From a virus, in the IMG/VR virus record IMGVR_UViG_3300005529_000030, positions 1 through 64,000 of that record: 64,000 nt of DNA; one strand, given 5' to 3'. Numbering within the stretch: position 1 is the stretch's first letter; every line of letters begins with the position of its first letter. The position numbers were made by a program, and so were the translations under genes. The notes below the pieces were generated by a model. The model was given only the letters and a program-made list of their open reading frames with translations, was not told the DNA's origin and searched no databases. Of the stretch, positions 1,033 to 25,772 are shown one piece after another.

Positions 1033-1038
1033 AATTTT

Positions 1039-1126
1039 GCGCTGCTGGCGGAACAGGCAGACGCAGGAGACTTAAAATCTTCGGCCTTAAAACGGCGTGG
1101 GAGTTCGATTCTCTCGCAGCGCACCA
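1039..1126 (+). tRNA. tRNA-Leu(TAA)
   Basis: ctTAAaa loop, long variable arm, CCA. Confidence 0.9.
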
Positions 1127-1147
1127 ATTCGATTATCAAGAGGCAAT

Positions 1148-1333: not shown

Positions 1334-1337
1334 GTTT

Positions 1338-1426
1338 ACTCGATAGCGGCGGTCCGCAGCACGCTCTTATAAAGCGTCGGGGCAGATTACCCTTGCTGGA
1401 AGGTTCGATTCCTTCATCGAGTACCA
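1338..1426 (+). tRNA. atypical tRNA, anticodon TAT (Ile), long variable arm
   Basis: Acceptor ACTCGAT/ATCGAGT, acgct-ctTATaa-agcgt, gaagg-TTCGATT-ccttc, ACCA; 4-nt D-loop; ~20-nt variable region. Confidence 0.8.
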
Positions 1427-1477
1427 ATTTTGTGTGATAGAAGGAACAAACGGAGAGTTGTTCCCAACAAAATTTTT

Positions 1478-1552
1478 AGTCCGCAGGTGTTATGACGGCA
1501 TTACTCCCTCTTAAGGAGATAGGTGACGGTTTGAATCCGTCGCGGACTACCA
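1478..1552 (+). tRNA. tRNA-Lys(CTT)
   Basis: ctcc-ctCTTaa-ggag, AGTCCGC/GCGGACT acceptor, T-loop TTTGAAT variant, CCA. Confidence 0.8.
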
Positions 1553-1558
1553 ATTTTT

Positions 1559-1638
1559 CGCCTTGTAGCTCAATTGGTAAGAGCACACGCCTTTTAAGCG
1601 TCGGGGTTGGAAGTATCCAAATCTTCCCAGGGCGACCA
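1559..1638 (+). tRNA. tRNA-Lys(TTT), enlarged T-loop
   Basis: TAGCTCAATTGGT D-arm, ctTTTaa loop, T-arm ggaag-TATCCAAAT-cttcc, CCA. Confidence 0.75.
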
Positions 1639-1709
1639 AATTTTAAGCGCGAGCCGTTATATTCCGAATGGAACTTTGGTTTATAAAATTTACGTAAAGC
1701 AAGTTTAAT

Positions 1710-1801
1710 GGAGAGGTTGGGGCAACAGGTCGCCCTACCGGGCTGTAACCCCCGGCATCCCAATGTGGATACTGTAGGTTCGAATCCTGCCTTCTCCACC
1801 A
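1710..1801 (+). tRNA. tRNA-Tyr(GTA)
   Basis: ctGTAac loop, long variable arm, GGTTCGAATCC, CCA. Confidence 0.85.
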
Positions 1802-1856
1802 ATTTGTTTCGCAGTCATTTTTAAAAAGTCCCCTTTACAAAAGGGCTGAGGGAAAC

Positions 1857-2171
1857 ATGTTAAATGCTAAAATAGCGTGGGATTGGACCGCATCCGACCC
1901 GCAAATTGTTTTTGACCATTTTGAAGTTTGGGATGCGGATTTGTCAAATAATGTTGTAGGAACAGCGCCGAGACCTGACGGAGCGGACGTAAAAACTACT
2001 CCTACCGATGCCGCGCCGTTGGTTCTTCAATACGCGAACCCAGGCGGTAAGGCGGTCGCTATTTATGCGGTTGATAATCTGGCTCAGAAATCAAGTCCGG
2101 TGTTTTTGACTTTTACGCTGACACAGCCAGTCCCAAACCCTGTAACCAACGCCCGTTTCCTTGGCCAGTAA
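1857..2171 (+). CDS. small FN3/Ig-like beta-sandwich protein (possible virion decoration)
   Basis: W-x-W-T-A-S...F-E-V-W...A-V-D-N-x-x-Q-K-S-S-P pattern typical of fibronectin type III; GAGGG RBS. Confidence 0.6.
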   Translation: MLNAKIAWDWTASDPQIVFDHFEVWDADLSNNVVGTAPRPDGADVKTTPTDAAPLVLQYANPGGKAVAIYAVDNLAQKSSPVFLTFTLTQPVPNPVTNARFLGQ

Positions 2172-2300
2172 TATTCTGGCGTTGGGTTTGCTTGATTAAA
2201 TATTTTTTGAGAAAGTTAGTGTGCAGACCGCGCAGCGCCCGTTGAGAGGAAGTCGTTCAATTAGTCCGAGGCGTAAAAAGTATCGGCTTGAATTTTTCGT

Positions 2301-2374
2301 ACTCCGCTGATGTAGTGGTAGCATGGATGCCTGATTAGCGTCTCGTCAAGGTTCGAGTCCTTGGTGGAGTACCA
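2301..2374 (+). tRNA. tRNA-Ile(GAT)
   Basis: gatgc-ctGATta-gcgtc, GGTTCGAGTCC, CCA. Confidence 0.85.
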
Positions 2375-2483
2375 AGTTTGGGATTACACTCAGGAATACA
2401 AACGGGCGTATTCTTGTGTTAGGTGTGGAGAGTCCGAATCTTGTTGTTTGGGACTCAAGCTTATTATAGAGGAGATTCATTTT

Positions 2484-2559
2484 GGGCGAGTAGCTCATTC
2501 AGGAGAGCGCCGCACTTGCAATGCGGAGGCGGCAGGGGCAGAGCCTGTTTCGTCCACCA
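2484..2559 (+). tRNA. tRNA-Ala(TGC), non-canonical T-loop
   Basis: ccgca-ctTGCaa-tgcgg, G3:U70 pair, T-loop GGCAGAG, CCA. Confidence 0.8.
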
Positions 2560-2560
2560 T

Positions 2561-2636
2561 ACGCTGTTAGCAAACTGGTAGTATGCGCTGGTCCTACAAA
2601 CCAGAAGGAATGGTTCGATTCCATTACGGCGTACCA
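2561..2636 (+). tRNA. tRNA-Val(TAC), C33 variant
   Basis: ctggt-ccTACaa-accag, TTCGATT, CCA. Confidence 0.75.
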
Positions 2637-2638
2637 AA

Positions 2639-2713
2639 AGGCTGTTCGTTTAGAGGAAAAGACAGCGGACTACGAATCCGCAGACGCGGGTCCGACTCCC
2701 GCACGGCCTTCCA
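2639..2713 (+). tRNA. tRNA-Arg(ACG)
   Basis: gcgga-ctACGaa-tccgc, T-loop TCCGACT, CCA. Confidence 0.8.
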
Positions 2714-2720
2714 ATTTTTA

Positions 2721-2795
2721 GGACTGTTAGGCTAACGGATAAACCAATGCGCTTCGAACGCATAATTAAGGGTTCAAATCCCTTGCGGTCCTCCA
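2721..2795 (+). tRNA. tRNA-Arg(TCG)
   Basis: atgcg-ctTCGaa-cgcat, TTCAAAT, CCA. Confidence 0.85.
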
Positions 2796-2899
2796 ATAGT
2801 TATAATGCAGCAGTGCAGAGAAATAGCAAGTGCCGTAGTTATGAGATACTTCTTCTAGTGTGAAAAAAGACTTATAACGCTTGTTGCCTTGCTTTTTAT

Positions 2900-2976
2900 T
2901 CCAGTCTGGTCCAATTTGGCAGGACGCTTGGCTGTTAACCATGAAGGTCTGGGTTCGAGTCCCAGGGCTGGAGCCA
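2900..2976 (+). tRNA. tRNA-Asn(GTT)
   Basis: ctGTTaa loop, TCC/GGA-GCCA ends typical of Asn. Confidence 0.85.
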
Positions 2977-3009
2977 AATTTTGAAATTTTTAAAGTGTCG
3001 TAAAATAAT

Positions 3010-3084
3010 GCACGATTAGTTTAATTGGTAGAATGGCCGTTTTGTAAACGGCGGGAGTTGGTTCAAATCCAACATTGTGCTCCA
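3010..3084 (+). tRNA. tRNA-Thr(TGT)
   Basis: gccgt-ttTGTaa-acggc, CCA. Confidence 0.85.
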
Positions 3085-3096
3085 ATTTTTAAGTTT

Positions 3097-3170
3097 GCTT
3101 TGTTGGTCTAGTGGCATGACAGCGGTTTCGTAAACCGCGAGCCGTGGTTCGATTCCACGACGAAGCTCCA
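3097..3170 (+). tRNA. tRNA-Thr(CGT)
   Basis: gcggt-ttCGTaa-accgc, CCA. Confidence 0.85.
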
Positions 3171-3189
3171 AAAATCGCTAAGTTTTTAG

Positions 3190-3218
3190 TTGACAAAATA
3201 AAAGTTTCATGGTACGCT
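3190..3218 (+). promoter_or_regulatory. sigma70-like promoter internal to tRNA array
   Basis: TTGACA-17 nt-TACGCT with TGn; -10 overlaps start of next tRNA. Confidence 0.45.
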
Positions 3219-3289
3219 TTGTTAGTTCAATGGTAGAACGCGCCCTTGGTAAGGGTGAAGTGAAAGTTCGATTCTTTCACGAAGCTCCA
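3216..3289 (+). tRNA. tRNA-Thr(GGT)
   Basis: cgccc-ttGGTaa-gggtg, CCA. Confidence 0.85.
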
Positions 3290-3291
3290 AC

Positions 3292-3366
3292 GGTGCTAGG
3301 GTCAGTTGGTAACGACACGGCCCTGTCACGGCTGAAGTCTGGGTTCGATTCCCAGTAGCACCGCCA
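3292..3366 (+). tRNA. tRNA-Asp(GTC)
   Basis: cggcc-ctGTCac-ggctg, GCCA end. Confidence 0.85.
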
Positions 3367-3367
3367 A

Positions 3368-3441
3368 GGCCCTGTCGTCTAAAGGCAGGACATTAGATTC
3401 TCAATCTAAGAACAGCGGGTCAGTACCGCTCAGGGTCACCA
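3368..3441 (+). tRNA. tRNA-Glu(CTC), non-canonical T-loop
   Basis: ttaga-ttCTCaa-tctaa, T-arm agcgg-GTCAGTA-ccgct, CCA. Confidence 0.8.
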
Positions 3442-3451
3442 ATTGGATAAT

Positions 3452-3526
3452 GGCGAAGTCGTCTAATGGCCAGGACATCAGCCTTTCAAGCTGAGAACGA
3501 GGGTTCGACTCCCTTCTACGCCTCCA
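3452..3526 (+). tRNA. tRNA-Glu(TTC)
   Basis: tcagc-ctTTCaa-gctga, CCA. Confidence 0.85.
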
Positions 3527-3530
3527 TTTT

Positions 3531-3617
3531 GCGTCTGTGGATGGAATTGGGCAGACACGCCAGTCTTAGAAACTGGTGCCTTCGGGCGTACAGGTTCGAG
3601 TCCTGTCAGGCGCACCA
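3531..3617 (+). tRNA. tRNA-Leu(TAG)
   Basis: ccagt-ctTAGaa-actgg, variable arm gccTTCGggc, CCA. Confidence 0.9.
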
Positions 3618-3629
3618 AATTTATGATTT

Positions 3630-3704
3630 CGTTCGGAAGCTAATCGGCTAGGCGGCGTTCTCATAAAGCGTGCATGGTTGGTTCGATTCCAACCCGAACG
3701 ACCA
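3630..3704 (+). tRNA. tRNA with CAT anticodon (Met or Ile2)
   Basis: ctCATaa loop, CGTTCGG/CCGAACG acceptor, CCA. Confidence 0.8.
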
Positions 3705-3709
3705 ATTGA

Positions 3710-3792
3710 AGCGGGGATGTGCTCCGGGTGCACACAAGACTCATAACCTTGTGGCTTGTCCAAAGTGGGTTCGATTCCCTCCCCCGCAACCA
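3710..3792 (+). tRNA. tRNA-Met(CAT), initiator-like acceptor, extended variable region
   Basis: GCGGGG/CCCCGC with 1:72 mismatch as in fMet tRNAs; ctCATaa loop; variable tgg-cttgt-cca. Confidence 0.7.
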
Positions 3793-3798
3793 ATTTTA

Positions 3799-3872
3799 GC
3801 GAAGTTAGTTTAGTGGCAGAACAAAACCTTGCCAAGGTTTGAGTACGATTTCGATTATCGTACTTCGCTCCA
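3799..3872 (+). tRNA. tRNA-Gly(GCC)
   Basis: aaacc-ttGCCaa-ggttt, GCG/CGC-TCCA. Confidence 0.85.
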
Positions 3873-3919
3873 TTTTTGTAGTATATGAGTATTCATTAGA
3901 TTTAACCGTGAGGTCTCTG

Positions 3920-4273
3920 ATGAGTCGTTCATATAGAAAGCCGTATGCTAGTTTTGTTTGCGGCTCCAATAGTGCTCGTTGGGATAAAACACAAGCAGCG
4001 AGAGCCGTTCGTCGCACTCAAAACCAAGCCATTAAGAAAGTTTTATCGAGTGGCGATTGGGACGAGTTTTTGATTCCCGACAGGTATGAGTGCAGTCATA
4101 ACGATGTTTGGGATTGGAGCCGCGATGGAAAGCAAGTTTACATGGCCAAGGATTCACAGTATAATAATCCTTTTGCTTATGTGAATTATGGGGATTTTGA
4201 GTTCGCTGTAAACTGTATGTTGGAAAGACAGAAACATACCGACAATTGGATTGCTAGGCTTTCAAGAAAATAA
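3920..4273 (+). CDS. hypothetical basic phage protein (MSRSYRKP...)
   Basis: ATG 3920 after GAGGT RBS; 117 aa. Confidence 0.65.
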   Translation: MSRSYRKPYASFVCGSNSARWDKTQAARAVRRTQNQAIKKVLSSGDWDEFLIPDRYECSHNDVWDWSRDGKQVYMAKDSQYNNPFAYVNYGDFEFAVNCMLERQKHTDNWIARLSRK

Positions 4274-4385
4274 TTTTTCGAGTCGCCAATCGCTGACTTT
4301 GTTACAATGTCGTCGAACGCTGACTTTCTACGTCGCTATTTTTTGTCTGGAAAAGGAACGTGCCGACAAGAAAATAATTTTTCGA

Positions 4386-4460
4386 GCGGGCGTGGTATAA
4401 AGGTTGTGCCTCAGCCTTCCAAGCTGAAGAAGACGGGTTCGAGTCCCGCCGACCGCTCCA
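4386..4460 (+). tRNA. tRNA-Gly(TCC)
   Basis: tcagc-ctTCCaa-gctga, TCCA. Confidence 0.9.
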
Positions 4461-4470
4461 AGTTTAACGC

Positions 4471-4546
4471 GAGTCATAGGTGTTAGTGGCAGCATATCGG
4501 TCTCCAAAACCGTAGGGTGGGGGTTCAAGTCCCTCATGTCTCGCCA
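4471..4546 (+). tRNA. tRNA-Trp(CCA)
   Basis: cggt-ctCCAaa-accg, GCCA. Confidence 0.85.
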
Positions 4547-4558
4547 AAAAGTTTTTAA

Positions 4559-4633
4559 GGCTCTGTCGTTCAACGGACAGGACCGCTGACTTCTAATCAG
4601 CGTATGCGAGTTCGATTCTCGCCGGGGCCTCCA
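4559..4633 (+). tRNA. tRNA-Arg(TCT)
   Basis: gctga-ctTCTaa-tcagc, CCA. Confidence 0.85.
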
Positions 4634-4709
4634 CGATTTGTCGTTTAATCGGATAAGACAGAAGTTTCCTAAACTTCTTATGCGGGTTCGAGTCCCGCCG
4701 AGTCGTCCA
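4634..4709 (+). tRNA. tRNA-Arg(CCT)
   Basis: gaagt-ttCCTaa-acttc; abuts previous tRNA with no spacer. Confidence 0.85.
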
Positions 4710-4725
4710 AAATCGAGGCACAAAT

Positions 4726-5067
4726 ATGAGGCCGTTAAAAGTAATGCTTTGTGCTCTCGTGTCTATCGTGAGTTATATATTAGGTGGTTTATTAAACGTT
4801 GCCGCCATATCGGCAAACAACGGTATGATGCCCGTTTATGTAGGAAAATTGACGAATCAAGAAATTTTTCTTGACAATGAGCACGTTTCAATGGCAACAT
4901 ACAGTCATTTGAAGATTTTATGTGACTATATTTCAATCGGAGATACGATAGCAAGTCCCGGAGACGTTTTATTGGTTTTAGGATTCTTGGGACTGATTGT
5001 TTCTTTTCTTGTGGCTACATATCTTATTGGAAAAGCCGTAAAGAATAAATTGAATTTGGTGAACTAG
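4726..5067 (+). CDS. DUF5317-like membrane protein
   Basis: Hydrophobic helices; N-x-G-x-MPV and L-x-D...S-P-G-D motifs. Confidence 0.65.
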   Translation: MRPLKVMLCALVSIVSYILGGLLNVAAISANNGMMPVYVGKLTNQEIFLDNEHVSMATYSHLKILCDYISIGDTIASPGDVLLVLGFLGLIVSFLVATYLIGKAVKNKLNLVN

Positions 5068-5384
5068 GCTATCGCGGAACGGTGGCTCCCTCAAACCGTA
5101 AGGTGTCGTCAAGGCGTACCTTGAGCATCGTATTACAGGGGGCGAAATTCCGAGGAAGTTCAGGACACATCTCAACATCAGACCGTGGAAGTTGCGGGCC
5201 GAGTAATTGGACGGGTAAGCCTCGATATTCTAATTATTGGCGGATAGTTAGAATCATTGGAGTCGAGAAACTCCCTCTGAGTGCAATGCCAAATAGGGCG
5301 GGAGTGAGTTGAGCACGCAGAACGCCGGGTAGGCAGCTTAGATGGATGATGGCCGTTATACAGAATCCTGGCTATTGTTCACCA
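5057..5384 (+). ncRNA. rnpB: RNase P RNA (bacterial type A-like), phage-encoded
   Basis: P1 ggtgaac/gttcacc; CR-I GAGGAAGTTCAGG; GTGCAA..CCAAATAGG; CCGGGTAGGCAGCTT; AGATGGATGAT; CR-V ACAGAATCCTGGCTA. Confidence 0.85.
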
Positions 5385-5392
5385 CATTATAC

Positions 5393-5479
5393 GGAGTGCT
5401 GGCGAAATTGGTAGCCGCACTTGTTTGCTAAACAAGCGACCGAAAGGTTGTGGAGGTTCAAATCCTTCGCACTCCGCCA
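5393..5479 (+). tRNA. tRNA-Ser(GCT)
   Basis: cttgt-ttGCTaa-acaag, long variable arm, GCCA. Confidence 0.9.
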
Positions 5480-5484
5480 ATTTT

Positions 5485-5570
5485 AGAGGGTAGCGGGAGA
5501 TGGTTCCCAACTAGTCTTGAAAACTAGGCTAACCGAAAGGTTAATCGTTCGACTCGGTTATCCTCTGCCA
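5485..5570 (+). tRNA. tRNA-Ser(TGA)
   Basis: ctagt-ctTGAaa-actag, long variable arm, GCCA. Confidence 0.85.
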
Positions 5571-5576
5571 TTTTAT

Positions 5577-5625
5577 AGTGTCACATATTTTACCATAAGC
5601 GTTTTACAGTGAAATATGTGACACT
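5577..5625. repeat. 14-bp perfect inverted repeat
   Basis: AGTGTCACATATTT-21 nt-AAATATGTGACACT between tRNA-Ser and tRNA-Cys. Confidence 0.8.
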
Positions 5626-5628
5626 TAA

Positions 5629-5704
5629 GCACGAGTAGCCAAGTGGCAAGGCATTCGTCTGCAAAACGAATATACGAAGGGTTCGATTCCCTCCTTGTGC
5701 TCCA
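5629..5704 (+). tRNA. tRNA-Cys(GCA)
   Basis: ttcgt-ctGCAaa-acgaa, U73 (TCCA). Confidence 0.9.
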
Positions 5705-5706
5705 AT

Positions 5707-5781
5707 TGCTTTGTCGAATAATTGGCAATTCGCAAGTCTTTGAAACTTGTTATTCAGGTTCGAGTCCTGACGAAGCAACCA
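5707..5781 (+). tRNA. tRNA-Gln(TTG)
   Basis: caagt-ctTTGaa-acttg, CCA. Confidence 0.85.
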
Positions 5782-5797
5782 AATTTTGAAATTTTAT

Positions 5798-5872
5798 TGC
5801 GATGTCATTCAATTGGTAGGATGCTAGTCTCTGAAACTAGTCATCTTGGTTCGAGTCCAAGCGCCGCAACCA
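5798..5872 (+). tRNA. tRNA-Gln(CTG)
   Basis: ctagt-ctCTGaa-actag, CCA. Confidence 0.85.
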
Positions 5873-5890
5873 TATTTGAGTTTTAAGCAG

Positions 5891-6097
5891 ATGAACATAT
5901 CAAAACAAGCATCAATGGGAAAGTATCTTTCTCATGGCGAGGATTTTCTTCATTTGATAAATAGGAATGGAGAAATACTTTTCTCAATTGATGGAAAAGG
6001 CACAGTACACACTCCAAGAATTACGTTTTTTGACGGAACTACTCAAATATCGGCGGCTGCCATAACCGAAACTTCAATTGATGCGGGTACTTTTTAA
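5891..6097 (+). CDS. small virion/fibre-associated protein
   Basis: ITFFDGTTQISAA and IDAGTF fibre-type motifs; stop overlaps next start. Confidence 0.5.
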   Translation: MNISKQASMGKYLSHGEDFLHLINRNGEILFSIDGKGTVHTPRITFFDGTTQISAAAITETSIDAGTF

Positions 6098-6618
6098 TGA
6101 GTCTTAATGTATCTATTCAGCTTTATCGAGGAACGAAATCTAGTTTGTCAACTTTGCCGTCCACGGGTTTTGCGGGTGTACTTGCGTGGACAACAGACAC
6201 TAATGAAATTTATGTTGATACTGGAAGCGGAACTGGAATACCTGCCGCTTGGTCTAGATTAGCCAATGATGTAAAAGTTTTTACGGCAGCCGACCAAACA
6301 TCTAGGTTGGCGCTAACTGGTGTTCTTATCGGAGATTTGTGTTTACAAGCCGATAACAATCGTACATACATTTTAACTGACGAGCCAGCGTCGAATAATG
6401 TAAATTGGACAGCCATAGGAGTTACATCGGGAACGACTATTCAGGGTTTATCGGCACCTGTAACTCATCAGTTTGTGACATATATTGATAATAACGGTGT
6501 TCAGCATTTAGCACAACCTTCATTTGCTGATATTTCAGGCTTACTCGCTCAAACTCAATTACCGACTTCGATTGGAGCAGGCTCAAGCCTAACGAATATA
6601 GATTGCGGTAGCTTCTAA
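6097..6618 (+). CDS. tail fibre-like protein with Mtd/hyaluronidase N-terminal-type domain
   Basis: IQLYRGT...G-x-LAWTTDTNEIYV; C-terminal IDCGSF. Confidence 0.65.
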   Translation: MSLNVSIQLYRGTKSSLSTLPSTGFAGVLAWTTDTNEIYVDTGSGTGIPAAWSRLANDVKVFTAADQTSRLALTGVLIGDLCLQADNNRTYILTDEPASNNVNWTAIGVTSGTTIQGLSAPVTHQFVTYIDNNGVQHLAQPSFADISGLLAQTQLPTSIGAGSSLTNIDCGSF

Positions 6619-6908
6619 TGGCTAGAAATGTAGGTATTCAAGTTTTGCGCGGCATTAAAGCAAATATGCCCATATTGCAAACGGGAGAGTTGTATTTTGC
6701 AACAGATGAAGCTCAGCTTTATGTCGGAACTTCGTCTGGAAATCAGTTAGTTTTGTTGCATCAGTTGGGTGTAGGTAATGGGGGTATTCAGACAGTACGT
6801 GCTCCTCAGAAAGGAACTGGCGACGGGCCGTCTAATCCACGCGATATAGTTGGTTTTTTGAAAATAGTTTTGTCGGGAACTACATATTGGGTTCCTTTAA
6901 TGCAATAA
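6618..6908 (+). CDS. small fibre-like protein with Mtd N-terminal-type domain
   Basis: IQVLRG...GELYFATDEAQLYVG; coupled TAATG junction. Confidence 0.65.
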   Translation: MARNVGIQVLRGIKANMPILQTGELYFATDEAQLYVGTSSGNQLVLLHQLGVGNGGIQTVRAPQKGTGDGPSNPRDIVGFLKIVLSGTTYWVPLMQ

Positions 6909-6911
6909 TTT

Positions 6912-6999
6912 CGAGTCATAGGCGGGTAAATGGAAGCCCTCTGGTTTTGGAAACCAGTGCCTAACGGCCTTGCAGGTTCGAGTCCTGCTGATTCGACCA
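6912..6999 (+). tRNA. tRNA-Pro(TGG) with extended variable arm
   Basis: ctggt-ttTGGaa-accag; variable gcc-taac-ggc; C1:G72, A73. Confidence 0.8.
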
Positions 7000-7008
7000 A
7001 TTTTTAAT

Positions 7009-7087
7009 CGAGAATTAGAGAAGCCTGGTTGTTCTCGCCTGCTTCGGAAGCAGGAGGTCCAAGGTTCAAATCCTTGATTCTCGACCA
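7009..7087 (+). tRNA. tRNA-Pro(CGG)
   Basis: cctgc-ttCGGaa-gcagg, CCA. Confidence 0.85.
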
Positions 7088-13352: not shown

Positions 13353-16121
13353 ATGCCTTTGGCGGGATTAGAAAAAGGTAAAAATAATTTTATTAATAAG
13401 CGTATAAACGACCAAAAAAGTTTTTGGCCAGGATACGTTAAAAAATGGGATGAAGAAAACGGCGGAAAAAGATTTCGTTCAGAGATAATGTCTTTGTCGG
13501 AACTTTGGAAGCTTTATTTGACGGGAGTTAGTACGGAGCTTTCAGCGGAAGAAGAAGCTCGTGGTAAAAAACCCGACAAGATAGACAGAATAAGTCAAGT
13601 TGTTCCTATAAAAGCATTTGAGTTACCGGGCCGATTTCACGAGCCATACATAACCGAAGACGGGACTAGAATTCACAAGGAAGGTTGGGGATACCTTCAT
13701 TTCGACCAATGGTTATATGCGCGAGACCAAGCCAGAAAGGATTTGTTTTGGCTGTGTAAAGAAGTCTTCAGTATGGACTTGTATGAAGATGTACATAGGG
13801 TTGTATGCAATCAGTTTGTGAGTAAAAATTTCGACGGTGTTTATGAAGAAAATTACTCTCTAAGGGACTTTCATCGCGCTTTGTCTAATCAGAGTCGCGT
13901 TCCTACGATTTGGGCGGAAACGAAGCCATATGTGAATGGATATTTTCCTGAAAAAACTCTTGACGATTATGGAAATTATATAAGAGACCCAATAGAAGAA
14001 ACGAAACAAACAAATTTTGCTAAAACGATGATTCTTTTAGACCCTCGTGGGTTTTTTAAATCATCTATAGACGTTGCTGATTGTATTCAGTGGATTATTA
14101 ATTGCCCCGACATAAGAATTTTGATTGTTAGCGGAGTTAATAAACTAGCGGCTCAATTTATGGTGGGCGTTAAGCAAGGGCCGAAAGGAAAGTCATTCTA
14201 TCTTCCGAGAGGGGTTCCGCCGTCTCCGTTTCATTATTTATTTCCTGAATTTGTAGTTCGCGGAGTGGATGGAACTTCAAAAGAAGATTTCCGCGTTAAC
14301 GAAAATATAAAAAAACATCTAAGTTTGGACCCAACTCTCGGAATTATTTCAGTGGGTTCGTCTTTATCGGGTTTTCACTGCGACGTTTTGAAGTTTGACG
14401 ATATAGTTACAGACGATAACTGTCTAACAGAAGATGCGCGAGAAGCCATTCTTTTGAAAGCAGACGGCGCGGTCAATTTGTTAATGGATTGGGGTTGGCA
14501 CGATATTATCGGAACTAGATATTATCCCGATGATTATTACGGCCAAACAGAGGCAACTCACAAGAAAGACCCTGAGATGTTCAATCTTAAATTCTTTCAA
14601 AGGGCCTGTTGGACCGTCAAGGAAGAGTTTAAGGACGTAGAAGCTAGAAGTTTATATGACCTTACGGAAGATATGGTCACGTTGACTTTTCCTCAGAAGC
14701 ACCCTAAAGGTCCGCATTATTCTTGGTTGGAGCTAAGAGCCAAACTTAAGAATGAAAAAAGTTTTAGATGTTTTCCTGCTGGGTCAAAAGTTCTCATGGG
14801 TGATTGGACTGAGAAAGCAATAGAGGATATTAGGCCCGGTGACGAAATAATAGGTTTTGATAGCGGCTTAAAGAAGGCTGTTGTTACTCATGTTCACGAG
14901 AAGCGAGATTTAGTTTCCAAGTTTCTAACAGAACAGGGGCGTACTATCTTCTCGACAAGAGACCATAAATTTCTTCGACCTAATACAGGAAAAAAGAAAG
15001 TTTATGGACCTTTGAAAATAGGAACTAAAGTTGTTTCTGTTTATAGCCCGTCAGGAGAATTGCTTTCCAAACAATGCAGTCGAGATATGGATTGGCTTAG
15101 AGGCGGCTCATCTATAGATAAAATTATTTCTATAGAAGATTTGAACGAGCAGCCTGTTTACACTCTCACGACAACTACAGGAAATTATGTTTGCCAAGGT
15201 TTTGCTGTGGCTAATTGTCAGCAGCTTAATCAGCCTGTTTGGGGCGAAGAATCCACAATTAGTTTCGACAGGCCGTTATTGGAATCTAGGAAAACTAAAA
15301 CTTTATCGGAAGTTTTGTCTGTGCCCGGATATGTTTACGGCGCCATTGATTTGGCAAAAGAGAATAAACAGTTTTCCGATTATACCGCTCTAGCTATAGG
15401 AAAAGTGTACCAAGAAGGAGTCGGTATAATTCGTCCGGATGAAAACGGTAATCTTCCAGAAAGACCCGACGGAAAATGGGTCATGGTCATATTGGACGTG
15501 GAATTCGGAAAGTGGTCTCAAACTGAGATAGCTAACCGAATTGCTAAAATGAACGATAAATGGCGACCTAAAAGATGGTACGGAGAAGACCTTGGCGGAT
15601 TGCAGACCTTCAAAGAAAAAATAATAGAAGTGTCAAAAACAACTTATGGTCATTGGCCGTATATTCCGTGGGTTACACCCGATAACAACGAAAATTCAAA
15701 GAGAAATAGAATTAAGGGCGTTGAAATTCTTCTTAGAGCGTCAAGACTATATTTTCTAATTGCGCCTTGGAATGTGGATGTTTTTGAACAGCTTGAAAAT
15801 TACAAAGGTCAAAAAAGCACTCGTTATTCTAAAGACGATGTGCCCGATGTAATTTCCCTTCTAACGAAGTTTATTCCGTCTTTGGTCCCTCTATCGAAAA
15901 GAGAGATGGAGCAAGTGGCAATTCAAAGAGAGACGGAATACAAAGAATTGCTTAGAAGAGAAATAAAGAAAGTTGTTTTCGGGGACGACGGCGGGGGTTT
16001 CGGAGTGAATAATATTAATAGAATATGGACAGAAGTGGAGTCTCCCAAAGAAGACACTAATCGGGGTCCGATGGCGGACATTAGCCGAAAATTTTTCGGC
16101 GGTAATGGAATGCGAGCATGA
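13353..16121 (+). CDS. terL: terminase large subunit (intein-containing)
   Basis: Walker A PRGFFKS, Walker B DVLKFDD, GTRY coupling motif, RNase H-like GAIDLA..SDYTA and DDVPD. Confidence 0.9.
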   Translation: MPLAGLEKGKNNFINKRINDQKSFWPGYVKKWDEENGGKRFRSEIMSLSELWKLYLTGVSTELSAEEEARGKKPDKIDRISQVVPIKAFELPGRFHEPYITEDGTRIHKEGWGYLHFDQWLYARDQARKDLFWLCKEVFSMDLYEDVHRVVCNQFVSKNFDGVYEENYSLRDFHRALSNQSRVPTIWAETKPYVNGYFPEKTLDDYGNYIRDPIEETKQTNFAKTMILLDPRGFFKSSIDVADCIQWIINCPDIRILIVSGVNKLAAQFMVGVKQGPKGKSFYLPRGVPPSPFHYLFPEFVVRGVDGTSKEDFRVNENIKKHLSLDPTLGIISVGSSLSGFHCDVLKFDDIVTDDNCLTEDAREAILLKADGAVNLLMDWGWHDIIGTRYYPDDYYGQTEATHKKDPEMFNLKFFQRACWTVKEEFKDVEARSLYDLTEDMVTLTFPQKHPKGPHYSWLELRAKLKNEKSFRCFPAGSKVLMGDWTEKAIEDIRPGDEIIGFDSGLKKAVVTHVHEKRDLVSKFLTEQGRTIFSTRDHKFLRPNTGKKKVYGPLKIGTKVVSVYSPSGELLSKQCSRDMDWLRGGSSIDKIISIEDLNEQPVYTLTTTTGNYVCQGFAVANCQQLNQPVWGEESTISFDRPLLESRKTKTLSEVLSVPGYVYGAIDLAKENKQFSDYTALAIGKVYQEGVGIIRPDENGNLPERPDGKWVMVILDVEFGKWSQTEIANRIAKMNDKWRPKRWYGEDLGGLQTFKEKIIEVSKTTYGHWPYIPWVTPDNNENSKRNRIKGVEILLRASRLYFLIAPWNVDVFEQLENYKGQKSTRYSKDDVPDVISLLTKFIPSLVPLSKREMEQVAIQRETEYKELLRREIKKVVFGDDGGGFGVNNINRIWTEVESPKEDTNRGPMADISRKFFGGNGMRA
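14769..15215 (+). mobile_element. mini-intein (149 aa) in terminase
   Basis: Starts CFPAGSKV, TRDHKF block B, ends VYTLTT..GNY..GFAVAN/C; no full endonuclease. Confidence 0.85.
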
Positions 16122-18567: not shown

Positions 18568-19758
18568 ATGACAGAACAACTTGCTCTTGTCCCAGAGAAT
18601 ATAACTTGGGATATGGTGAACGCATGGGACGGAAAAACCATGCGAAAATATATGTCTATTCCTGAGTACAGAGACGCAATTACCAAAGTAGTTGCATCTA
18701 GGTCGTATCAAGAAATTCAAGATTTGGCCGTTAAACAAGAGGAAACGGCATCAGAAGTGAATATTGAAAATTCGGATATTTCTACTAAAGATGCTTTGGC
18801 GGCTCCCGCAGCATTGGAAGATGCTGCTTCTAGTAAAACTACTACAGACTCAGCCCCAATTGCCGTGCCTGAACCTCCAAAAAAGATTATAGTGGAGTAT
18901 CAGGTCAGAGATGAAGATGGAAATCCTATTGGTAGGCCCACGCACTTAGAAGCCTACACCGAAGAAGAAATGCGAAAAAAGATAATCGAGGCGCATGTTC
19001 AGGCGACTCGCGCATTTCATCGTTTAAAGAAACAGAAAGTACAAAGCATTCAAGAAATATCTAAACAAGACGAACCGTCTTCTACTTCCCCTCGAACTAT
19101 GACTGACGAAGAGTTGATGGCCACGTTAAAAGATTTAAGGTCAGACGACCCTCAAATTCAATTGGCGGCCCATAAAAAGTTGATGCAATCTTATGAAGAA
19201 AAGGCCAAAGCAGAACGGGAAGCCAAGGAAGCCGAGCAGCGCGAATTTGAAAGGCAGAAGCAAGTAAGTATTGAGTTTTTGAAAAGACACAAACACGATT
19301 TTAATAATTGTCAAGCCAACGTGGATTTAATAGGCGAGTATTTTAAGGAAAATAAACTTCCTTGGACGCTTGATAATTTGGAAGTAGCTTTTATAGCTCT
19401 TGAAGATAGGCTGGCACCTGTAGCGACGCCAGCGGTAGAGGTATTACCAGAGCCTAATCCGCCTGTTCCTCAACCAACAGCTACGACAACAGCGGCGGCG
19501 GTTGTGCAGCCGACACCGACTGTGCCTGTCGCTCCTCCGCAGCCAATTAATTCGGTTGCGGTTCCGAGACCAGGAGTCAATGGGGGTATTGTTCCGGGAC
19601 AAACTTCAGCACCGCGCCCGTCGCAAAAACCTCAAGGACTAACGATGGAAGAAATCCTTTCTTGGGATGCTCAAACCATGCGAGCGAAAATGCGTTCGCC
19701 GCTACGTGCAGAAATAGAGCGCGTAACAATGGAAGCGCGACTAAGAAGAGGACGGTAA
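18568..19758 (+). CDS. putative capsid scaffolding protein
   Basis: Coiled-coil + Pro-rich linker, repeated W-D-x-x-TMR ends, position before capsid gene. Confidence 0.6.
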   Translation: MTEQLALVPENITWDMVNAWDGKTMRKYMSIPEYRDAITKVVASRSYQEIQDLAVKQEETASEVNIENSDISTKDALAAPAALEDAASSKTTTDSAPIAVPEPPKKIIVEYQVRDEDGNPIGRPTHLEAYTEEEMRKKIIEAHVQATRAFHRLKKQKVQSIQEISKQDEPSSTSPRTMTDEELMATLKDLRSDDPQIQLAAHKKLMQSYEEKAKAEREAKEAEQREFERQKQVSIEFLKRHKHDFNNCQANVDLIGEYFKENKLPWTLDNLEVAFIALEDRLAPVATPAVEVLPEPNPPVPQPTATTTAAAVVQPTPTVPVAPPQPINSVAVPRPGVNGGIVPGQTSAPRPSQKPQGLTMEEILSWDAQTMRAKMRSPLRAEIERVTMEARLRRGR

Positions 19759-19803: not shown

Positions 19804-22800
19804 ATGGCTGGAGGCCCAAACCCGGCAATTGCTAATGTCGGGAATATATTAACGGCTCAAAGCATCCTCAAGTAAGGGGCTGTTTCGAGGGAAACAGAAA
19901 TCTTCTCTGATTGACTTGGAACCTGAAATGGCGACAAGGCGGAAGCGCAAGCACCGTGAGAGACTAAGCGAGAAGACACCTAAAAGGTGATACGATAGTC
20001 CGTTCTAATAGGAAAGAAAACTGTTAGGGAAAAACGCTTTGATAAGGAGCTAATCCCGAACTTATTTTTATAGAGTGAAATGCCGAAATTTGATAATCTT
20101 ACTGGAGTGAAATTCGGACGCCTGACGGTTATAAGCAGAGCACCAGACGCCGTTTCTAAATCTGGTTTCGTATATACAAGATGGAATTGTTTGTGCGATT
20201 GCGGAAAAGAGAAAACGATATATGCTGGTTCTTTAAAAAGAGGAGTAACCGTTTCTTGCGGTTGCCAACTTAAACAAGTTTGGCGACGAATAGGTCTTTC
20301 CAGTATCAAACACGGCGGCAGTTCAAAAGATGCGTCGGTAGATAAAAAAATACAATTTCAAATTTTACAACATATCCGTCAGCGAGCCAGAGCCAACGGA
20401 TATGAAACTGATTTAGAATTATCGGATATACCTGAAGTTCCTGATGTTTGTCCGGTTCTCGGAATTAAACTTAAAAAAGGAAAAGGTCCTCTATCTGATT
20501 TTTCTGTATCTATTGATAAAATCAATCCTAATTTACCGTATCTTAAAAAATACAAAAATAATTTGCGATTGATTTCATATAGAGCTAATCGTATTAAAAA
20601 CGACGCTACTATTGATGAATTGGAAAAAATCATTCTATATATAAAAATGAGCCGCTCTGAAGAGAGCGAGAATCTTCTCTGATTGACTTGAAACCTGAAA
20701 TGGCAACAAGGCGGAAACCGAAAAGGTGCCGTGAGAGACTAAGCGAGAAGACGCCGAAACGGCGATGCGATAGTCCGCTCTAACAAGAATAAAATTGTTA
20801 GTTAACAACAGGAAAGGGAGAAACGGATGCATTTGTTGTTGCCGCCGAGCGTCGTGTTCAACCGAATAACACTGGTATTAACCGCCAGTTTTTTCAGTAC
20901 AATACGCTTGTAGGTGACACAACCCAAGCTGGTGATGGTGTTATCGGAGCACCAGAGTTCATTGGTCAGATTTCATCTCCGGCTCAACTGGGCGAATGGA
21001 ATAACTATACCAACTTTAGCGCGTTTGTTGTTGCGAGCGCACTAGATGATTTGGTTGGAAACAGCGCAGTTGAACTTGGGTAAAACTTGATGCCCAAGTA
21101 AAATCACGTTATATCAGATTAGGTCTTTTTCTAAAAAGATGAGTCTGAGACATTGTATATTGCCTTAAGGCAGAAGAGGAACTAGAAGTGCAAAGAAAAT
21201 CTTGGCCGTATGTGGCCGGAATATTGGATGCCGAAGGAACTATTGTTATTGGCGAAACAAACGGTGGTTTTTATTCTAAAATAAAAATTTCCAACACCAA
21301 CAAAAAGTTAATGAAGTGGTTGGTTCAAAATTTTGGAAATGTTTTTTATAAAAACCTAAATTCAAGAAGTAATAGAAGTGTTTTATATGAATGGAATTGT
21401 TTAGCCAATCAACAAGAGGCTTTTCTTTTAGGCGTTTTGCCGTTTTTATTGGTTAAGAAACCTCAAGCTTTGACTTTGCTTGAGTTCAGAAGAACCGAAT
21501 CGTTGGAAGAAAAAAAGAAGTTGTGCGACAGAATAAAACAGCAGAATCAGCGTCTTATTGAGAATAAAACTTCTTTTATTAATTCTCATAACAAAGACCG
21601 TTTTAAATATGCTGCCGGATATATGGATGGAGACGGTGGTTTTTATTTCGGAGATTCGAGCCATACAAGAATATATCTAACGAGCATAGATTTTATAATT
21701 ATAAAATGGTTTTTAGCTAATTTTGGCGGTAAATTCTATAAATACAATTCTTCTAATGAAAATCATTCTGACTACTTTAGGTGGGTTCTTAGCGGACGGA
21801 AAAATAAAAAGTTGTTTTTGCTTGGAACTATCCCGTACATGATTTTGAAGAGGGAGCAAGCAAAAAATCTTTTACAAATTATAGATTCTAGTTCTGTTCA
21901 AACGACTAATACACGTGAGATTTCCTCGTCGGAAATCAAGAAAGAGTCTTAACTTATTGGTGACAATAAGAGCTTAATTTCTGTGAAGAAAATTAACTAA
22001 AAACATTTAATCAGGCTGGCCAAAGCATCTCTCAGTTATACGCTGCCGTTGCAGACAGCGCAGCAACTGTAGATTCTCAGGTAAACCAAAGCAGCTTGTT
22101 AACCTCTCCATTTGTTTTGGATTTGGCTACGTTACGTGAATTGAAACAGCAGTTAGTTTCAAAGAACGTACTACCAAACCGAAATGGAAGGTTCGCAGGA
22201 GTTATTTCGCCTAACGTTTTGGGCGATATTTTCAACTCGACCACAGTGAACAACTCCATCAACTAAGGTGGACATTTAACGAAAGTTAAATTGAATAAAT
22301 CAGTTCTAATTGACTCGAACCCTGGGATGGGAACGAGGGCCAAGCGAGACGACGCAGGCTGAGAGAACAAACGAACTGACTCCCAATAGGGAGATGCAAT
22401 GTTCCGTTCTTGTGAGAATCATTCTTTTGATTGGAGAAAAATTCGGTCGTTTACTAGTTATCAAAAAAGCGTTTTCCAAACATGGACGCTCTCGTTGGAT
22501 TTGTCAGTGCGATTGTGGTAAAACTTATAACGTTTTAGGTCACAACCTTCGCAAGGGAAAAACTAAAAGTTGTGGATGCTTGCGAAAAGAGTCGGCACGT
22601 AATTTAATCAGTTTCGCCAAGGAAAAAAACTTTTTAAGTCCTGGCGAAGCGGCCTTTAACGTTATGTATTATACGTACAAACAGCACGCAAATGAACGAG
22701 GATTGGATTTTAGTTTGGAAAAAGATAGTTTTCGGCATTTAACACAAATGAATTGTTATTATTGCGGAGACGAGCCGAAGGATTTTTTCAAGCCTAAAGC

Positions 22801-23412
22801 TCCTAATGGCGGATACCTAAGTAACGGAATAGACCGAAAAGATAACGCGATGGGATATACAATTGAAAATTGTGTTCCATGTTGTCGAATCTGCAATCAA
22901 ATGAAAAGTAATAAATCATACGAAGATTTTATTACTCGTTGTTGGAAAATCACAAGAGGCCACAAGCCCTCTACTTTGGTAGAGTAACAACAAGCGTTGA
23001 CCTGTGGAAATATGCAAATATGGATAAGTTCGATAAAATCGCTGGCGCAGACCAGAAGATGGACATCGAACTTCCCGGCACTTCTATCGTATTACGACAG
23101 ACGCCTTTCGTAACTACGACGCCTAATTATTCTGGAACGACAAGCACCGCATATCGTACCTATATCTTCGGACAGTACGCAATGATTGGTGTTTGGCAGA
23201 ATGTACCAGGCGATACCGATTTGGGAGACGGAGATTGGCGCACTATTGACTGCAAGGTAGTTGAGAATGCACCAGCGTCTGCGTTTGACCCGGTTGGTAC
23301 AATCGGAAGCTGGTGTTCTTATAGATTCCACCAGACGGTAACTCTACCGCCTGCTCGTGGGGCAAACACTCAGCGCCTTCGCTTCATAGATAGCGTACCT
23401 GCTATTCAGTAG
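19804..23412 (+). CDS. major capsid protein (N4-gp56-like), 5 exons: join(19804..19868,20037..20063,20813..21081,22010..22259,22995..23412), 342 aa
   Basis: Exons sum to 1029 nt in one frame: MAGGPNP...SIL|FDKELIPNL|KGETDAFVVAAERRVQP...ELG|YQAGQS...NNSI|VDLWKY...FDPVGTIGSWCSY; GAGGG RBS; position after scaffold. Confidence 0.85.
19869..20036 (+). ncRNA. group I intron 1 (168 nt, no ORF)
   Basis: P1 CCU|C..GGGG with U-G; P3 TCTTCTC/GAGAAGA; P7 GACTA/TAGTC; terminal G. Confidence 0.85.
20064..20812 (+). mobile_element. group I intron 2 with HNH endonuclease
   Basis: Core ~20668-20812 closely matches intron 1 core; terminal G restores L-K-G-E frame. Confidence 0.85.
20080..20682 (+). CDS. intron-encoded HNH homing endonuclease
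   Basis: KFGRLTV..WNCLCDCG..SCGC DNA-binding module; CPVLG..SIDKI.P..Y..N...IS.RAN.IK. Confidence 0.85.
   Translation: MPKFDNLTGVKFGRLTVISRAPDAVSKSGFVYTRWNCLCDCGKEKTIYAGSLKRGVTVSCGCQLKQVWRRIGLSSIKHGGSSKDASVDKKIQFQILQHIRQRARANGYETDLELSDIPEVPDVCPVLGIKLKKGKGPLSDFSVSIDKINPNLPYLKKYKNNLRLISYRANRIKNDATIDELEKIILYIKMSRSEESENLL
21082..22009 (+). mobile_element. group I intron 3 with LAGLIDADG endonuclease
   Basis: P1 ACTTGGGU/GCCCAAGT; P10 CTTGAT/ATCAGG; P3 TCACGT/ACGTGA; P7 GACT/AGTC. Confidence 0.8.
21188..21952 (+). CDS. double-motif LAGLIDADG homing endonuclease
   Basis: YVAGILDAEG and YAAGYMDGDG. Confidence 0.9.
   Translation: MQRKSWPYVAGILDAEGTIVIGETNGGFYSKIKISNTNKKLMKWLVQNFGNVFYKNLNSRSNRSVLYEWNCLANQQEAFLLGVLPFLLVKKPQALTLLEFRRTESLEEKKKLCDRIKQQNQRLIENKTSFINSHNKDRFKYAAGYMDGDGGFYFGDSSHTRIYLTSIDFIIIKWFLANFGGKFYKYNSSNENHSDYFRWVLSGRKNKKLFLLGTIPYMILKREQAKNLLQIIDSSSVQTTNTREISSSEIKKES
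22260..22994 (+). mobile_element. group I intron 4 with HNH endonuclease in P9
   Basis: P1 TCCAU|C..GGTGGA; P3 TCAGTTC/GAACTGA; P7 GAACA/TGTTC; P9 CTTGTG/CACAAG; terminal G. Confidence 0.85.
22310..22987 (+). CDS. intron-encoded HNH homing endonuclease (true start probably ~22394-22427)
   Basis: KFGRL..WICQCDCG..KSCGC; CYYCG..NGIDRKDN..GYT.ENCVPCC..CN.MK. Confidence 0.85.
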   Translation: MTRTLGWERGPSETTQAERTNELTPNREMQCSVLVRIILLIGEKFGRLLVIKKAFSKHGRSRWICQCDCGKTYNVLGHNLRKGKTKSCGCLRKESARNLISFAKEKNFLSPGEAAFNVMYYTYKQHANERGLDFSLEKDSFRHLTQMNCYYCGDEPKDFFKPKAPNGGYLSNGIDRKDNAMGYTIENCVPCCRICNQMKSNKSYEDFITRCWKITRGHKPSTLVE

Positions 23413-23462
23413 TAACTTCTTTTTTTTCAATAACTTACAGACGAGTTAGTTACTCGTCTTAG

Positions 23463-23500
23463 TCGAGGGGCGCTCTTATGACGCGCTCCTCGGCGTTTTT
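23463..23500 (+). terminator. rho-independent terminator after capsid gene
   Basis: TCGAGGGGCGC...GCGCTCCTCGG followed by TTTTT. Confidence 0.6.
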
Positions 23501-23514: not shown

Positions 23515-23973
23515 ATGCAATTACCCGATTCTCTTAGTTTAGCTGGGTTAAAGCCGGGAACCAAGGAATATGCTCGAATGACGGGTCGTAGATATTACTA
23601 TCGTCACCGTGACAAGGAAAAGGCCCGCACTAAAATTTGGCGATTGTCTAATCCCGATAAATATAAAAAATGGGTTGAGAAAAACAGAATTAAATTAATA
23701 CAAGCGGCTCGGCGACATGACCATCAAGTTACCTCTGAATGGTTTGAATTAAAATTGAAACAACAAAACGGTCGGTGTGCCATTTGTAATAAAATTCCAA
23801 AAAGATTTGATATAGACCACAACCATTCCTGTTGTCAAGGAAGGAAAAGTTGTCATAAATGTAATCGTGGTTTGCTATGTCGAAGTTGTAATACTTTTAT
23901 AGGGTTGGCAAAAGAATCTACAGATTTTCTTTTGTCCGCTATTAATTATCTACAACAGTATAATAAGGATTGA
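23515..23973 (+). CDS. endonuclease VII-type free-standing nuclease
   Basis: Q.GRCAIC..DIDHNH.CC....C..C.RGLLC..CN..IG. Confidence 0.85.
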   Translation: MQLPDSLSLAGLKPGTKEYARMTGRRYYYRHRDKEKARTKIWRLSNPDKYKKWVEKNRIKLIQAARRHDHQVTSEWFELKLKQQNGRCAICNKIPKRFDIDHNHSCCQGRKSCHKCNRGLLCRSCNTFIGLAKESTDFLLSAINYLQQYNKD

Positions 23974-25187: not shown

Positions 25188-25253
25188 AACATGGGGGCTG
25201 ATTTACGTCAGCCCCATATTTCACAGATAAATTTTAAGTCGAGTTGGCTAAAA

Positions 25254-25772
25254 ATGGAAATTACGGATTTGGAAAAAAGAGTGGCTCTTTTAGAGCAGAA
25301 AGTAAAGAGCTATGAAAAAGATTCTCGTCGCGGTTTGGCAGGTCCTATTGGACCTCGCGGACCTCAGGGACCTCAGGGACCTCAAGGCGAGCGAGGAATC
25401 CAAGGAGATAAAGGCGACACAGGTCCGCAAGGTCCGCAAGGTCCGAAAGGTGACACAGGTCCGCAAGGTCCGAAAGGCGACACAGGTCCGCAAGGTCCGC
25501 AAGGTCCGAAAGGCGATAAAGGCGATAGAGGCGACATAGGTCCGCAAGGTCCGAAAGGCGACATAGGTCCACAAGGTCCGAAAGGCGATAAAGGCGATAG
25601 AGGCGACATAGGTCCACAAGGTCCGAAAGGCGATAAGGGAGAACCAGGAAGGGACGGCAAAGACGGACTTTCGGGGCCGAGAGGGCCAGCGGGAAACATT
25701 GAAGCCGCAGTTCAGGCGGCGATTGATGCCGTTATGAAACTTTTGAAAGAAAAAGGGTTGATAAATGGCTAA
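25254..25772 (+). CDS. collagen-like triple-helix repeat protein
   Basis: About 40 Gly-X-Y triplets ([15 protein letters not shown]) flanked by short coiled coils. Confidence 0.85.
25350..25650 (+). repeat. tandem 9/27-bp repeats encoding collagen
   Basis: GGTCCGCAA / GGTCCGAAAGGCGAC units. Confidence 0.85.

Follow-up and report, generated by a model that had tools for sequence, protein, structure and literature searches.

Where does this phage keep its major capsid gene, and how could such a gene be expressed? The question is raised by a 64,000-nt window of viral DNA (positions 1 to 64,000 of the IMG/VR record IMGVR_UViG_3300005529_000030, a linear viral contig of 72.6 kb that is ~70% complete), in which the structural genes run from the terminase over an SU10-type portal and a 108-amino-acid (aa) open reading frame (ORF) to a 396-aa scaffold-like ORF. 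No intact capsid ORF lies downstream of the scaffold-like gene; the stretch 19804-23412 holds three endonuclease-like ORFs and short open pieces instead. We find that these pieces very probably make up the sole capsid gene of an uncultured, probably soil-dwelling tailed phage, which is split by four mobile group I-type introns at invariant protein stretches.

Reconstruction of the split capsid gene

Five exons on the plus strand were placed with the help of an intact 344-aa homologue, termed P0001.

19804-19868, plus strand: capsid exon 1, 65 nt, aa 1-22, ATG at 19804 (tblastn with P0001 aa 1-23)
20037-20063, plus strand: capsid exon 2, a micro-exon of 27 nt, aa 23-31, FDKELIPNL
20813-21081, plus strand: capsid exon 3, 269 nt, aa 31-120 (tblastn, 88% identity to P0001)
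22010-22259, plus strand: capsid exon 4, 250 nt, aa 121-204 (tblastn, 83% identity to P0001)
22995-23412, plus strand: capsid exon 5, 418 nt, aa 204-342, stop TAG at 23410-12

Joined by coordinates (65+27+269+250+418), the exons yield 1029 nt, i.e. 342 codons and a stop, with 0 internal stop codons, exactly as the first-pass annotation of this locus had proposed. The spliced product is colinear with P0001 over all four junctions, with 303 of 344 alignment columns identical and a single gap of 2 residues remote from the junctions; exon 5 is 88% identical to P0001 in a protein search and 87% by tblastn. The fit is tight, because a one-base error in two exon bounds produces 8 internal stops. Every junction slides by 1 nt, since intron and next exon begin with the same base, and for introns 1, 2 and 4 one of the two join choices gives both a U at position -1 and a G at the intron end. 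The four introns (168, 749, 928 and 735 nt) account for 2580 of 3609 nt, and the measured 71.5% of the locus agrees with the initial estimate of about 72%. A search of the whole 72.6-kb record with P0001 found only four ordered pieces within 19804-23412 and no second capsid copy, in line with the earlier statement that no intact capsid ORF follows the scaffold.

Homologues corroborate the reconstruction at several levels. The open piece of exon 5 (22996-23409) finds 226 longer proteins with up to 88% identity at best, and most of the 120 listed among them are 340-345 aa long. Residues FDKELIPNL of the micro-exon are invariant across 14 homologues, and the predicted junction peptides ILFDK, NLKGE, LGYQA and SIVDL were all present in intact homologues, ten of which were examined. 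Comparison of the exons with four intact genes gave proportions of nonsynonymous and synonymous differences (pN and pS) of 0.08-0.14 and 0.77-0.82, respectively; judged from coding divergence, the capsid exons are under strong purifying selection. The introns are inserted at invariant residues (F23-G33, E118-Q125 and T200-D208), as expected for endonuclease targets. In unspliced RNA the frame of exon 1 closes two codons into intron 1, and a further stop, UAA, stands where exon 3 passes into intron 3; start codons of their own are absent from exons 2-5.

Capsid identity of the product

Structure prediction supports the view that the split gene encodes an HK97-fold major capsid protein resembling N4 gp56, the identity suggested at first pass. 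In fold prediction and structure search the spliced product was represented by P0001, to which it is 88% identical. A profile search over 1.84 billion representatives yielded 240 relatives, 67 diverse ones of which were used for folding; the AlphaFold model of P0001 reached a predicted local distance difference test (pLDDT) score of 87.9 with these 67 sequences and of 34 with 14 close homologues. The first Foldseek match in the PDB is the phage N4 capsid (9e99_A, E 3.4e-13, template modelling score (TM) 0.59), followed by the capsids of GP4, Pan3 and Moo19, and the top matches listed are nearly all phage capsids. The N4 major capsid protein is the closest structural match to P0001, yet shares merely 12% identity with it. 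A sequence profile against the PDB hit 'Major capsid protein' 9d7z_A at E 2.4e-6, and PHROG 1357 'major head protein' matched at E 1e-6, while Pfam and NCBIfam gave no match for the capsid protein and a single-sequence PDB search gave none either. The sole cultured relative is Tunturiibacter phage Tunturi_3, whose intact gene is annotated 'major head protein' and shows 35.7% identity. The capsid protein is part of a separate, mostly uncultured lineage with Tunturi_3 as one cultured member.

Introns 1, 2 and 4 as members of a compact group I family

Covariation argues strongly that a single compact group I family, here named R1, with helices P1-P9 and a P3/P7 pseudoknot, includes introns 1, 2 and 4.

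19869-20036, plus strand: intron 1, 168 nt, no ORF, R1 core 19897-20029 (R1 model, 140.3 bits)
20064-20812, plus strand: intron 2, 749 nt, R1 core 20669-20803 (R1 model, 143 bits)
20080-20682, plus strand: HNH-type ORF of intron 2, between P1 and P2, UGA stop within J3/4
22260-22994, plus strand: intron 4, 735 nt, a divergent R1 member, core 22296-22431 (R1 model, 104 bits)
22394 to 22985-87, plus strand: HNH-type ORF of intron 4, probably from the AUG at 22394 (within J8/7) to the UAA at 22985-87 (within the conserved 3' tail)

The R1 alignment comprises 22 introns (19 inserts from relatives, intron 1, and the cores of introns 2 and 4), on which a hand-drawn P3-P4-P5-P6-P6a-P7-P8-P9 structure including the P3/P7 pseudoknot was tested. 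Altogether 98.7% of 763 cells are paired, and 27 of 35 pairs have changed on both sides. None of 500 shuffles equals any of these measures, and slid controls pair at 35-47%. P7 consists of a bulged base followed by a G-C pair in all 22 introns, with an outer pair that is G-C in 12 and A-U in 10, a layout we take to be the guanosine site as in Tetrahymena and Azoarcus. Intron 4 keeps its P7 pairing via two compensatory changes. Three places, no more, match the R1 covariance model, whether the window or the whole record is searched.

All four interruptions show the group I anatomy that had been read from the letters, with a U.G pair at P1 and a P3/P7 core and, in three of them, homing-endonuclease ORFs in addition. 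The exon-final U pairs with a G of the internal guide in four of four introns, P1 measuring 4, 4, 8 and 5 bp, respectively. The exon upstream of intron 1 ends in U and the intron in G (20036), and the terminal bases of introns 2 and 4 (20812 and 22994) are likewise G.

The ORFs of introns 2 and 4 match PHROG 374 'HNH endonuclease' (E 4e-20 and E 5.6e-21, respectively) as well as PHROG 1035, with no Pfam match, and are 37% identical to each other over 106 aa; overall, the intron endonuclease ORFs match PHROG families 374, 1035, 3322 and 5046. The intron 2 ORF ends in J3/4, and that of intron 4 probably starts in J8/7 and ends in the tail; an RNA being translated in these ORFs should therefore be unable to fold its ribozyme core, and vice versa.

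ORF-less R1 introns that retain P1-P9 occur both in the window (19869-20036, 168 nt) and in a related locus (L033, 6093-6261, 169 nt). The Azoarcus intron, at roughly 205 nt, is longer than these.

Intron 3 and a second family with a LAGLIDADG gene

The R1 model gives no match to intron 3, which comparative evidence places in a second group I-type family with a LAGLIDADG gene.

21082-22009, plus strand: intron 3, 928 nt, second intron family
21188-21952, plus strand: LAGLIDADG ORF of intron 3, running through P7, P3', P8 and P7', stop just past P7'
21074-82 with 21091-99: P1 of intron 3
21086-91 with 22010-15: P10 of intron 3
21104-09 with 21913-18: P3 of intron 3
21178-86 with 21887-95: 9-bp helix of intron 3, read as P6, closing the ORF
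21919-25 with 21931-37: P8 of intron 3
21953-59 with 21964-70: P9 of intron 3
21974-80 with 21990-96: P9.1 of intron 3

The P4-P6 region was assigned by inspection and a minimum free energy fold only, and P3, P8 and P10 by a four-sequence comparison only. A coordinate-window search in these four family members yielded a P1 of 8-10 bp with U.G at the splice site, a P10 of 4-7 bp directly 5' of the P1 guide, and a 7-bp P9 with a GNRA loop; P1, P10, P3, P8, P9 and P9.1 stand at equal relative places with different letters in all four. In an alignment of nine distinct members, 91.5% of the cells of P7, P9 and P9.1 are paired and 15 of the 21 base pairs show compensatory changes, a result that 0 of 500 shuffles equal. 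The P7 helix presents a G-C pair at the guanosine site in eight of nine members, the ninth row being misaligned.

The ORF within intron 3 matches PHROG 5046 (E 8e-31) and, at 21.6 bits, falls below the 22.5 cut-off of Pfam LAGLIDADG_3; its relatives P0272-P0276 are ~60% identical and carry PF00961/PF14528. Compared with these five closest relatives it is short of ~31 residues and stops where they read on through P9, a shortening that may represent endonuclease decay. Scans of viral and metagenome contigs with the LAGLIDADG protein or alignment returned relatives at 26-39% identity only, and some of the more distant relatives lie within other capsid genes. Searching for intron 3 relatives with one DNA pattern gave no match, and a second pattern, made from the 3' part, matched viral contigs at 11 places, of which L107 was judged a chance match.

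Members of the intron 3 family were also seen in capsid genes of other phages (L099, L100, L102-L106). All of them end in G, and most insertions lie near ...YADYANFS / EWNNYTNFS, at about residues 90-95.

The terminal adenosine of intron 3

The last base of intron 3 (22009) is an A rather than a G under both joins, and contigs of two runs agree on it; the first-pass annotation is silent on this feature. Eight of eight aligned relatives carry the terminal G (omega-G) and end in ...UAAACAnAUUU(U)G at the exon boundary, where the window reads ...UAAAAACAUUUA. The P7 helix keeps its ordinary G-C site despite the terminal A. The G site and the terminal G are reportedly treated by Michel (1989), Been and Perrotta (1991), and Price and Cech (1988). 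Nearby G residues (21988, 22014 and 22015) were considered as the 3' splice site of intron 3 and rejected, as they lead to stops, frameshifts or loss of invariant residues in the LGYQAG stretch.

None of the other introns has a P1 or P10 as strong as those of intron 3 (8-9 bp and 6 bp, respectively). Our tentative proposal, which we hold with some reserve, is that intron 3 ligates exons with a 3'-terminal adenosine, the ordinary G-C site being kept and the register held by the long P1 and P10. If true, the phage would depend for its capsid supply on a series of four ribozymes, and the chemistry at the 3' splice site of one of these would be non-canonical. A partial literature search, which did not extend to supplements or image tables, found no natural terminal-A group I introns. 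As a natural intron that ends in A, intron 3 allows a direct, inexpensive test of whether exon ligation must have a G at the intron end.

Distribution of R1 introns in related phages

We compared 80 related viral loci. Their capsid genes are uninterrupted in 47 cases, cut by a contig end in 2, and carry insertions of 169-778 nt in 31. The R1 model detects 41 places in these 31 loci, all on the gene strand and about half of them outside the training set. Read from coordinates, all 41 places would lie within the capsid gene, with exons mapped for 11 of the 31 loci. Single R1 introns occur in 22 loci, two in 8, and three in one (L016). The U/G splice rule holds in nine of ten loci with a unique best join, the tenth (L074) holding two introns; where joins are tied, one of the tied joins obeys it.

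Insertion sites in the relatives lie near residues 22, 29-31, 288, 309-318, 329, 334-337 and 340, while intron 4 of the window sits at 204. Two relatives (L030 and L060) have ORF-bearing introns of 758 and 778 nt at the intron 2 site, and a third (L078, 4872-6939) repeats the window layout of intron 1, a 27-nt exon and an ORF-bearing intron 2. A tree of 37 intron cores, built from a short alignment, shows partial grouping by insertion site. If the proposed reading of intron 3 is true, the lineage would offer a natural series in which to follow the tolerance of essential genes to serial intron invasion, from 168-nt ORF-less to ORF-bearing introns and with more than ten insertion sites within a single gene. 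The L016 capsid gene (4383-6596) combines its three R1 introns with a 48-nt micro-exon.

Two further R1 matches each lie between a pair of like-named coding sequences (CDS): the pair is 'ribonucleotide reductase' in Roseobacter phage CRP-118 (OR420741.1; L090 2500-2636, 80 bits) and 'P22 coat protein' in a spring-water podovirus (MW202674.1; L091 2500-2648, 95 bits). Both CDS pairs are probably unannotated split genes. R1 is therefore broader than this lineage and also occurs in a classical group I host gene.

Sequence support and genome context

The stretch is repeated with 0 differences and no joints in contigs from 4 public DNA runs (3 studies), and two of these contig records span the intron 3/exon 4 boundary. 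The same DNA is present in 11 runs of 5 studies dating from 2017-2024, seven of which possibly represent the source sample. Contigs drop rare variants, and the absence of an intron-less allele from them is uninformative.

11-7084: 27 tRNA genes
13353-16121, plus strand: large terminase, 922 aa, with an intein-like insert at about residues 469-619
18568-19758: scaffold-like ORF, 396 aa, upstream of the capsid locus
23515-23973, plus strand: free-standing Endonuclease VII-family ORF, directly downstream of the capsid gene (Pfam E 7.9e-14)
25191-25772, plus strand: collagen triple-helix repeat protein within the structural module (Pfam E 2e-21)
44185-44304, minus strand: tyrosine-integrase-like frame, 33.4 bits together with its neighbours
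46085-46993, minus strand: IMPDH/GMP-reductase-family gene (E 4e-55)

The capsid gene is flanked by the scaffold-like gene on one side and, downstream of 23412, by SU10-adaptor-like genes on the other. Just past the capsid stop lie two GC-rich hairpins (23425-23500), the second followed by a T run, which look like a terminator. The Endonuclease VII-family ORF behind them may be another mobile nuclease. Within the terminase insert, the Pfam families Hint, Hom_end_hint and Intein_splicing all match, each below its cut-off; the phage would accordingly have a putative protein-splicing element besides the RNA-splicing ones.

Probable repeated intron invasion and alternative explanations

The layout of the locus is best read as repeated selfish invasion rather than as a designed regulator, because capsid introns are common in the lineage (31 of 80 loci) and often multiple (9 of 31 with two or three). 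A conserved, essential gene would have been invaded repeatedly by selfish homing elements, which it would tolerate since they are spliced out; the late transcript would shed all four introns and yield the 342-aa HK97-fold, N4-like capsid protein. Three of the introns appear to carry homing-endonuclease genes, two HNH-type and one LAGLIDADG, with frames overlapping ribozyme core elements. These endonucleases would home into intron-less alleles and, after the PhiPA3 case, might confer an edge in mixed infections.

Several observations weigh against this reading. The genome record is only ~70% complete, and no RNA run is among the public runs listed as holding the stretch. RF00028, the search suggested by the first-pass annotation, matches none of the four introns at its gathering score or at E<=10, and RF00028 alone on the whole record is equally negative; the same model did pass its own cut-off in 2 of the 14 genomes used as controls. 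Some group I subgroups reportedly escape RF00028, and subgroup-specific group I models were reportedly built in a 2018 study. We do not take the null as absence of group I introns, because covariation is strong, and it is on covariation, not on RF00028, that group I status is based. Introns 1 and 2 have a P1 of just 4 bp, and helices of this length are not above chance; P1 barely beats non-cognate exons (mean 4.7 versus 3.3 bp; at least 5 bp in 35% versus 15%). These P1 statistics are weak and were left out of the main evidence. Lastly, intron 3 may splice poorly or not at all, because the terminal G it lacks is the nucleotide attacked at exon ligation and needed there, according to the accessible text of PMC3984707.

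This last point is taken furthest by the view that the capsid gene is crippled: having lost its terminal G (G to A), intron 3 would no longer ligate exons 3 and 4, and the DNA would come from a decaying prophage or a helper-dependent phage that is carried clonally. The window has an omega A where eight of eight aligned members with the same conserved 3' tail have G, and the G-binding pair of P7 is unchanged, so that compensation is not visible there; the early stop of the LAGLIDADG ORF, ~31 residues short, hints at decay, the record contains a tyrosine-integrase-like frame, and identical sequence across the runs examined would fit clonal carriage. Five exons that are all intact and conserved are nevertheless at odds with a crippled gene, as are portal, terminase and tail genes that look whole. 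The long P1 and P10 of intron 3 could hold the 3' splice site in place, and recovery of the DNA from 11 runs over several years would be hard for a dead phage, even with seven runs possibly being the source sample. We consider a crippled capsid gene unlikely.

A regulatory checkpoint, in which capsid output is gated by GTP, Mg2+ or timing through the four introns, had been put forward at first pass purely as an inference, and the patchy introns among relatives speak against it: 47 of 80 related capsid genes are intron-less and others have one to three introns at varying sites, an arrangement that is not conserved, and homing endonucleases in three introns are a mark of selfish mobility. We regard such a checkpoint as very improbable and as unnecessary to account for the locus, for which selfish homing introns offer a simpler reading, even if all four introns must go and the capsid yield would be the product of four efficiencies. 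Group I splicing requires a guanosine cofactor, as stated in the available part of PMC3984707, and the genome does contain the IMPDH/GMP-reductase-family gene to which the checkpoint had been linked; the gene is real, and nothing ties it to splicing. Still further from the evidence are interruptions other than group I introns, be they chimeras of the assembly, inteins, group II introns, or plain insertions that leave the gene to be translated in separate pieces. The inserts contain in-frame stops, which excludes inteins, and their length of 168-928 nt without a reverse transcriptase argues against group II introns; separate pieces are difficult to reconcile with exons 2-5 that have no start codons of their own and an exon 2 of just 27 nt, and chimeras with independent contigs that bridge those junctions that contigs cover. 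The RF00028 null and the lack of an RNA run among the listed holders leave some room for this group of explanations, whereas the pseudoknotted group I core is backed by covariation, and we give them next to no credence. Repeated invasion by selfish group I-type introns remains our preferred explanation.

Comparison with known systems

The consequences reach beyond this phage. Gene callers and Rfam both miss the capsid gene, and the phage seems to lack a capsid protein; the same blind spot affects 31 of 80 related viral contigs as well as two GenBank phage records whose probable split genes are unannotated. The locus shows that phage group I introns extend beyond nucleotide-metabolism genes: within a single soil lineage, the structural gene with the highest expression is an intron hot spot holding one to four introns. 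The two covariation-supported intron families, both unmatched by Rfam and one including 168-169-nt members, could extend group I models.

R1 introns resemble the Azoarcus tRNA-Ile intron in what we assume to be shared traits: small size, P2-P9 without large peripheral domains, GNRA loops, and a P7 bulge before the G-C pair. The R and S core motifs, GAGACUA... and ...GAUAGUCC, presumably resemble those of Azoarcus as well. Unlike the Azoarcus tRNA-Ile intron, the 168-250-nt introns described here reside in protein-coding phage genes and have no RF00028 match.

Phage group I introns are described as sporadic and as favouring genes of nucleotide and DNA metabolism in the accessible portion of PMC12350094. 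Capsid-gene introns have precedents in mycobacteriophage LittleE and lactococcal phage Tuc2009, assigned to group I by the U at -1 and the end G in the excerpted text of PMC3706429; the same excerpts report that the LittleE intron contains an HNH gene and that its splicing was shown by reverse-transcription PCR and N-terminal sequencing. Each of these capsid genes has a single intron in that account, versus four here with splicing predicted from sequence. In the jumbo phages AR9 and MarsHill, several genes are interrupted by at least one intron; those named in bioRxiv 10.1101/2020.12.14.422802 code for RNA polymerase subunits, scaffold/protease, DNA polymerase, terminase and gyrase. As in PhiPA3, whose intron endonuclease acts in phage-phage competition according to the abstract of PMC11620839, an intron-borne homing endonuclease resides here in an essential phage gene and may cut intron-less alleles of co-infecting relatives; PhiPA3 serves only as a model of a possible benefit.

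A partial literature search found no phage capsid gene with four introns, and supplements or image tables could hold higher per-gene counts. The closest parallel in number is orf142 of Staphylococcus phage Twort with three group I introns (Landthaler and Shub 1999, a title in the reference list of PMC6669764). Both loci combine one phage protein gene with several group I introns, and their short exons raise the possibility of exon skipping. Unlike Twort orf142, the present locus is a major capsid gene of 71.5% intron, with four introns from two families, three of which carry endonuclease genes. Capsid-gene introns and multi-intron phage genes are already known, and this locus is a striking and extreme case of mobile group I introns in phage genes.

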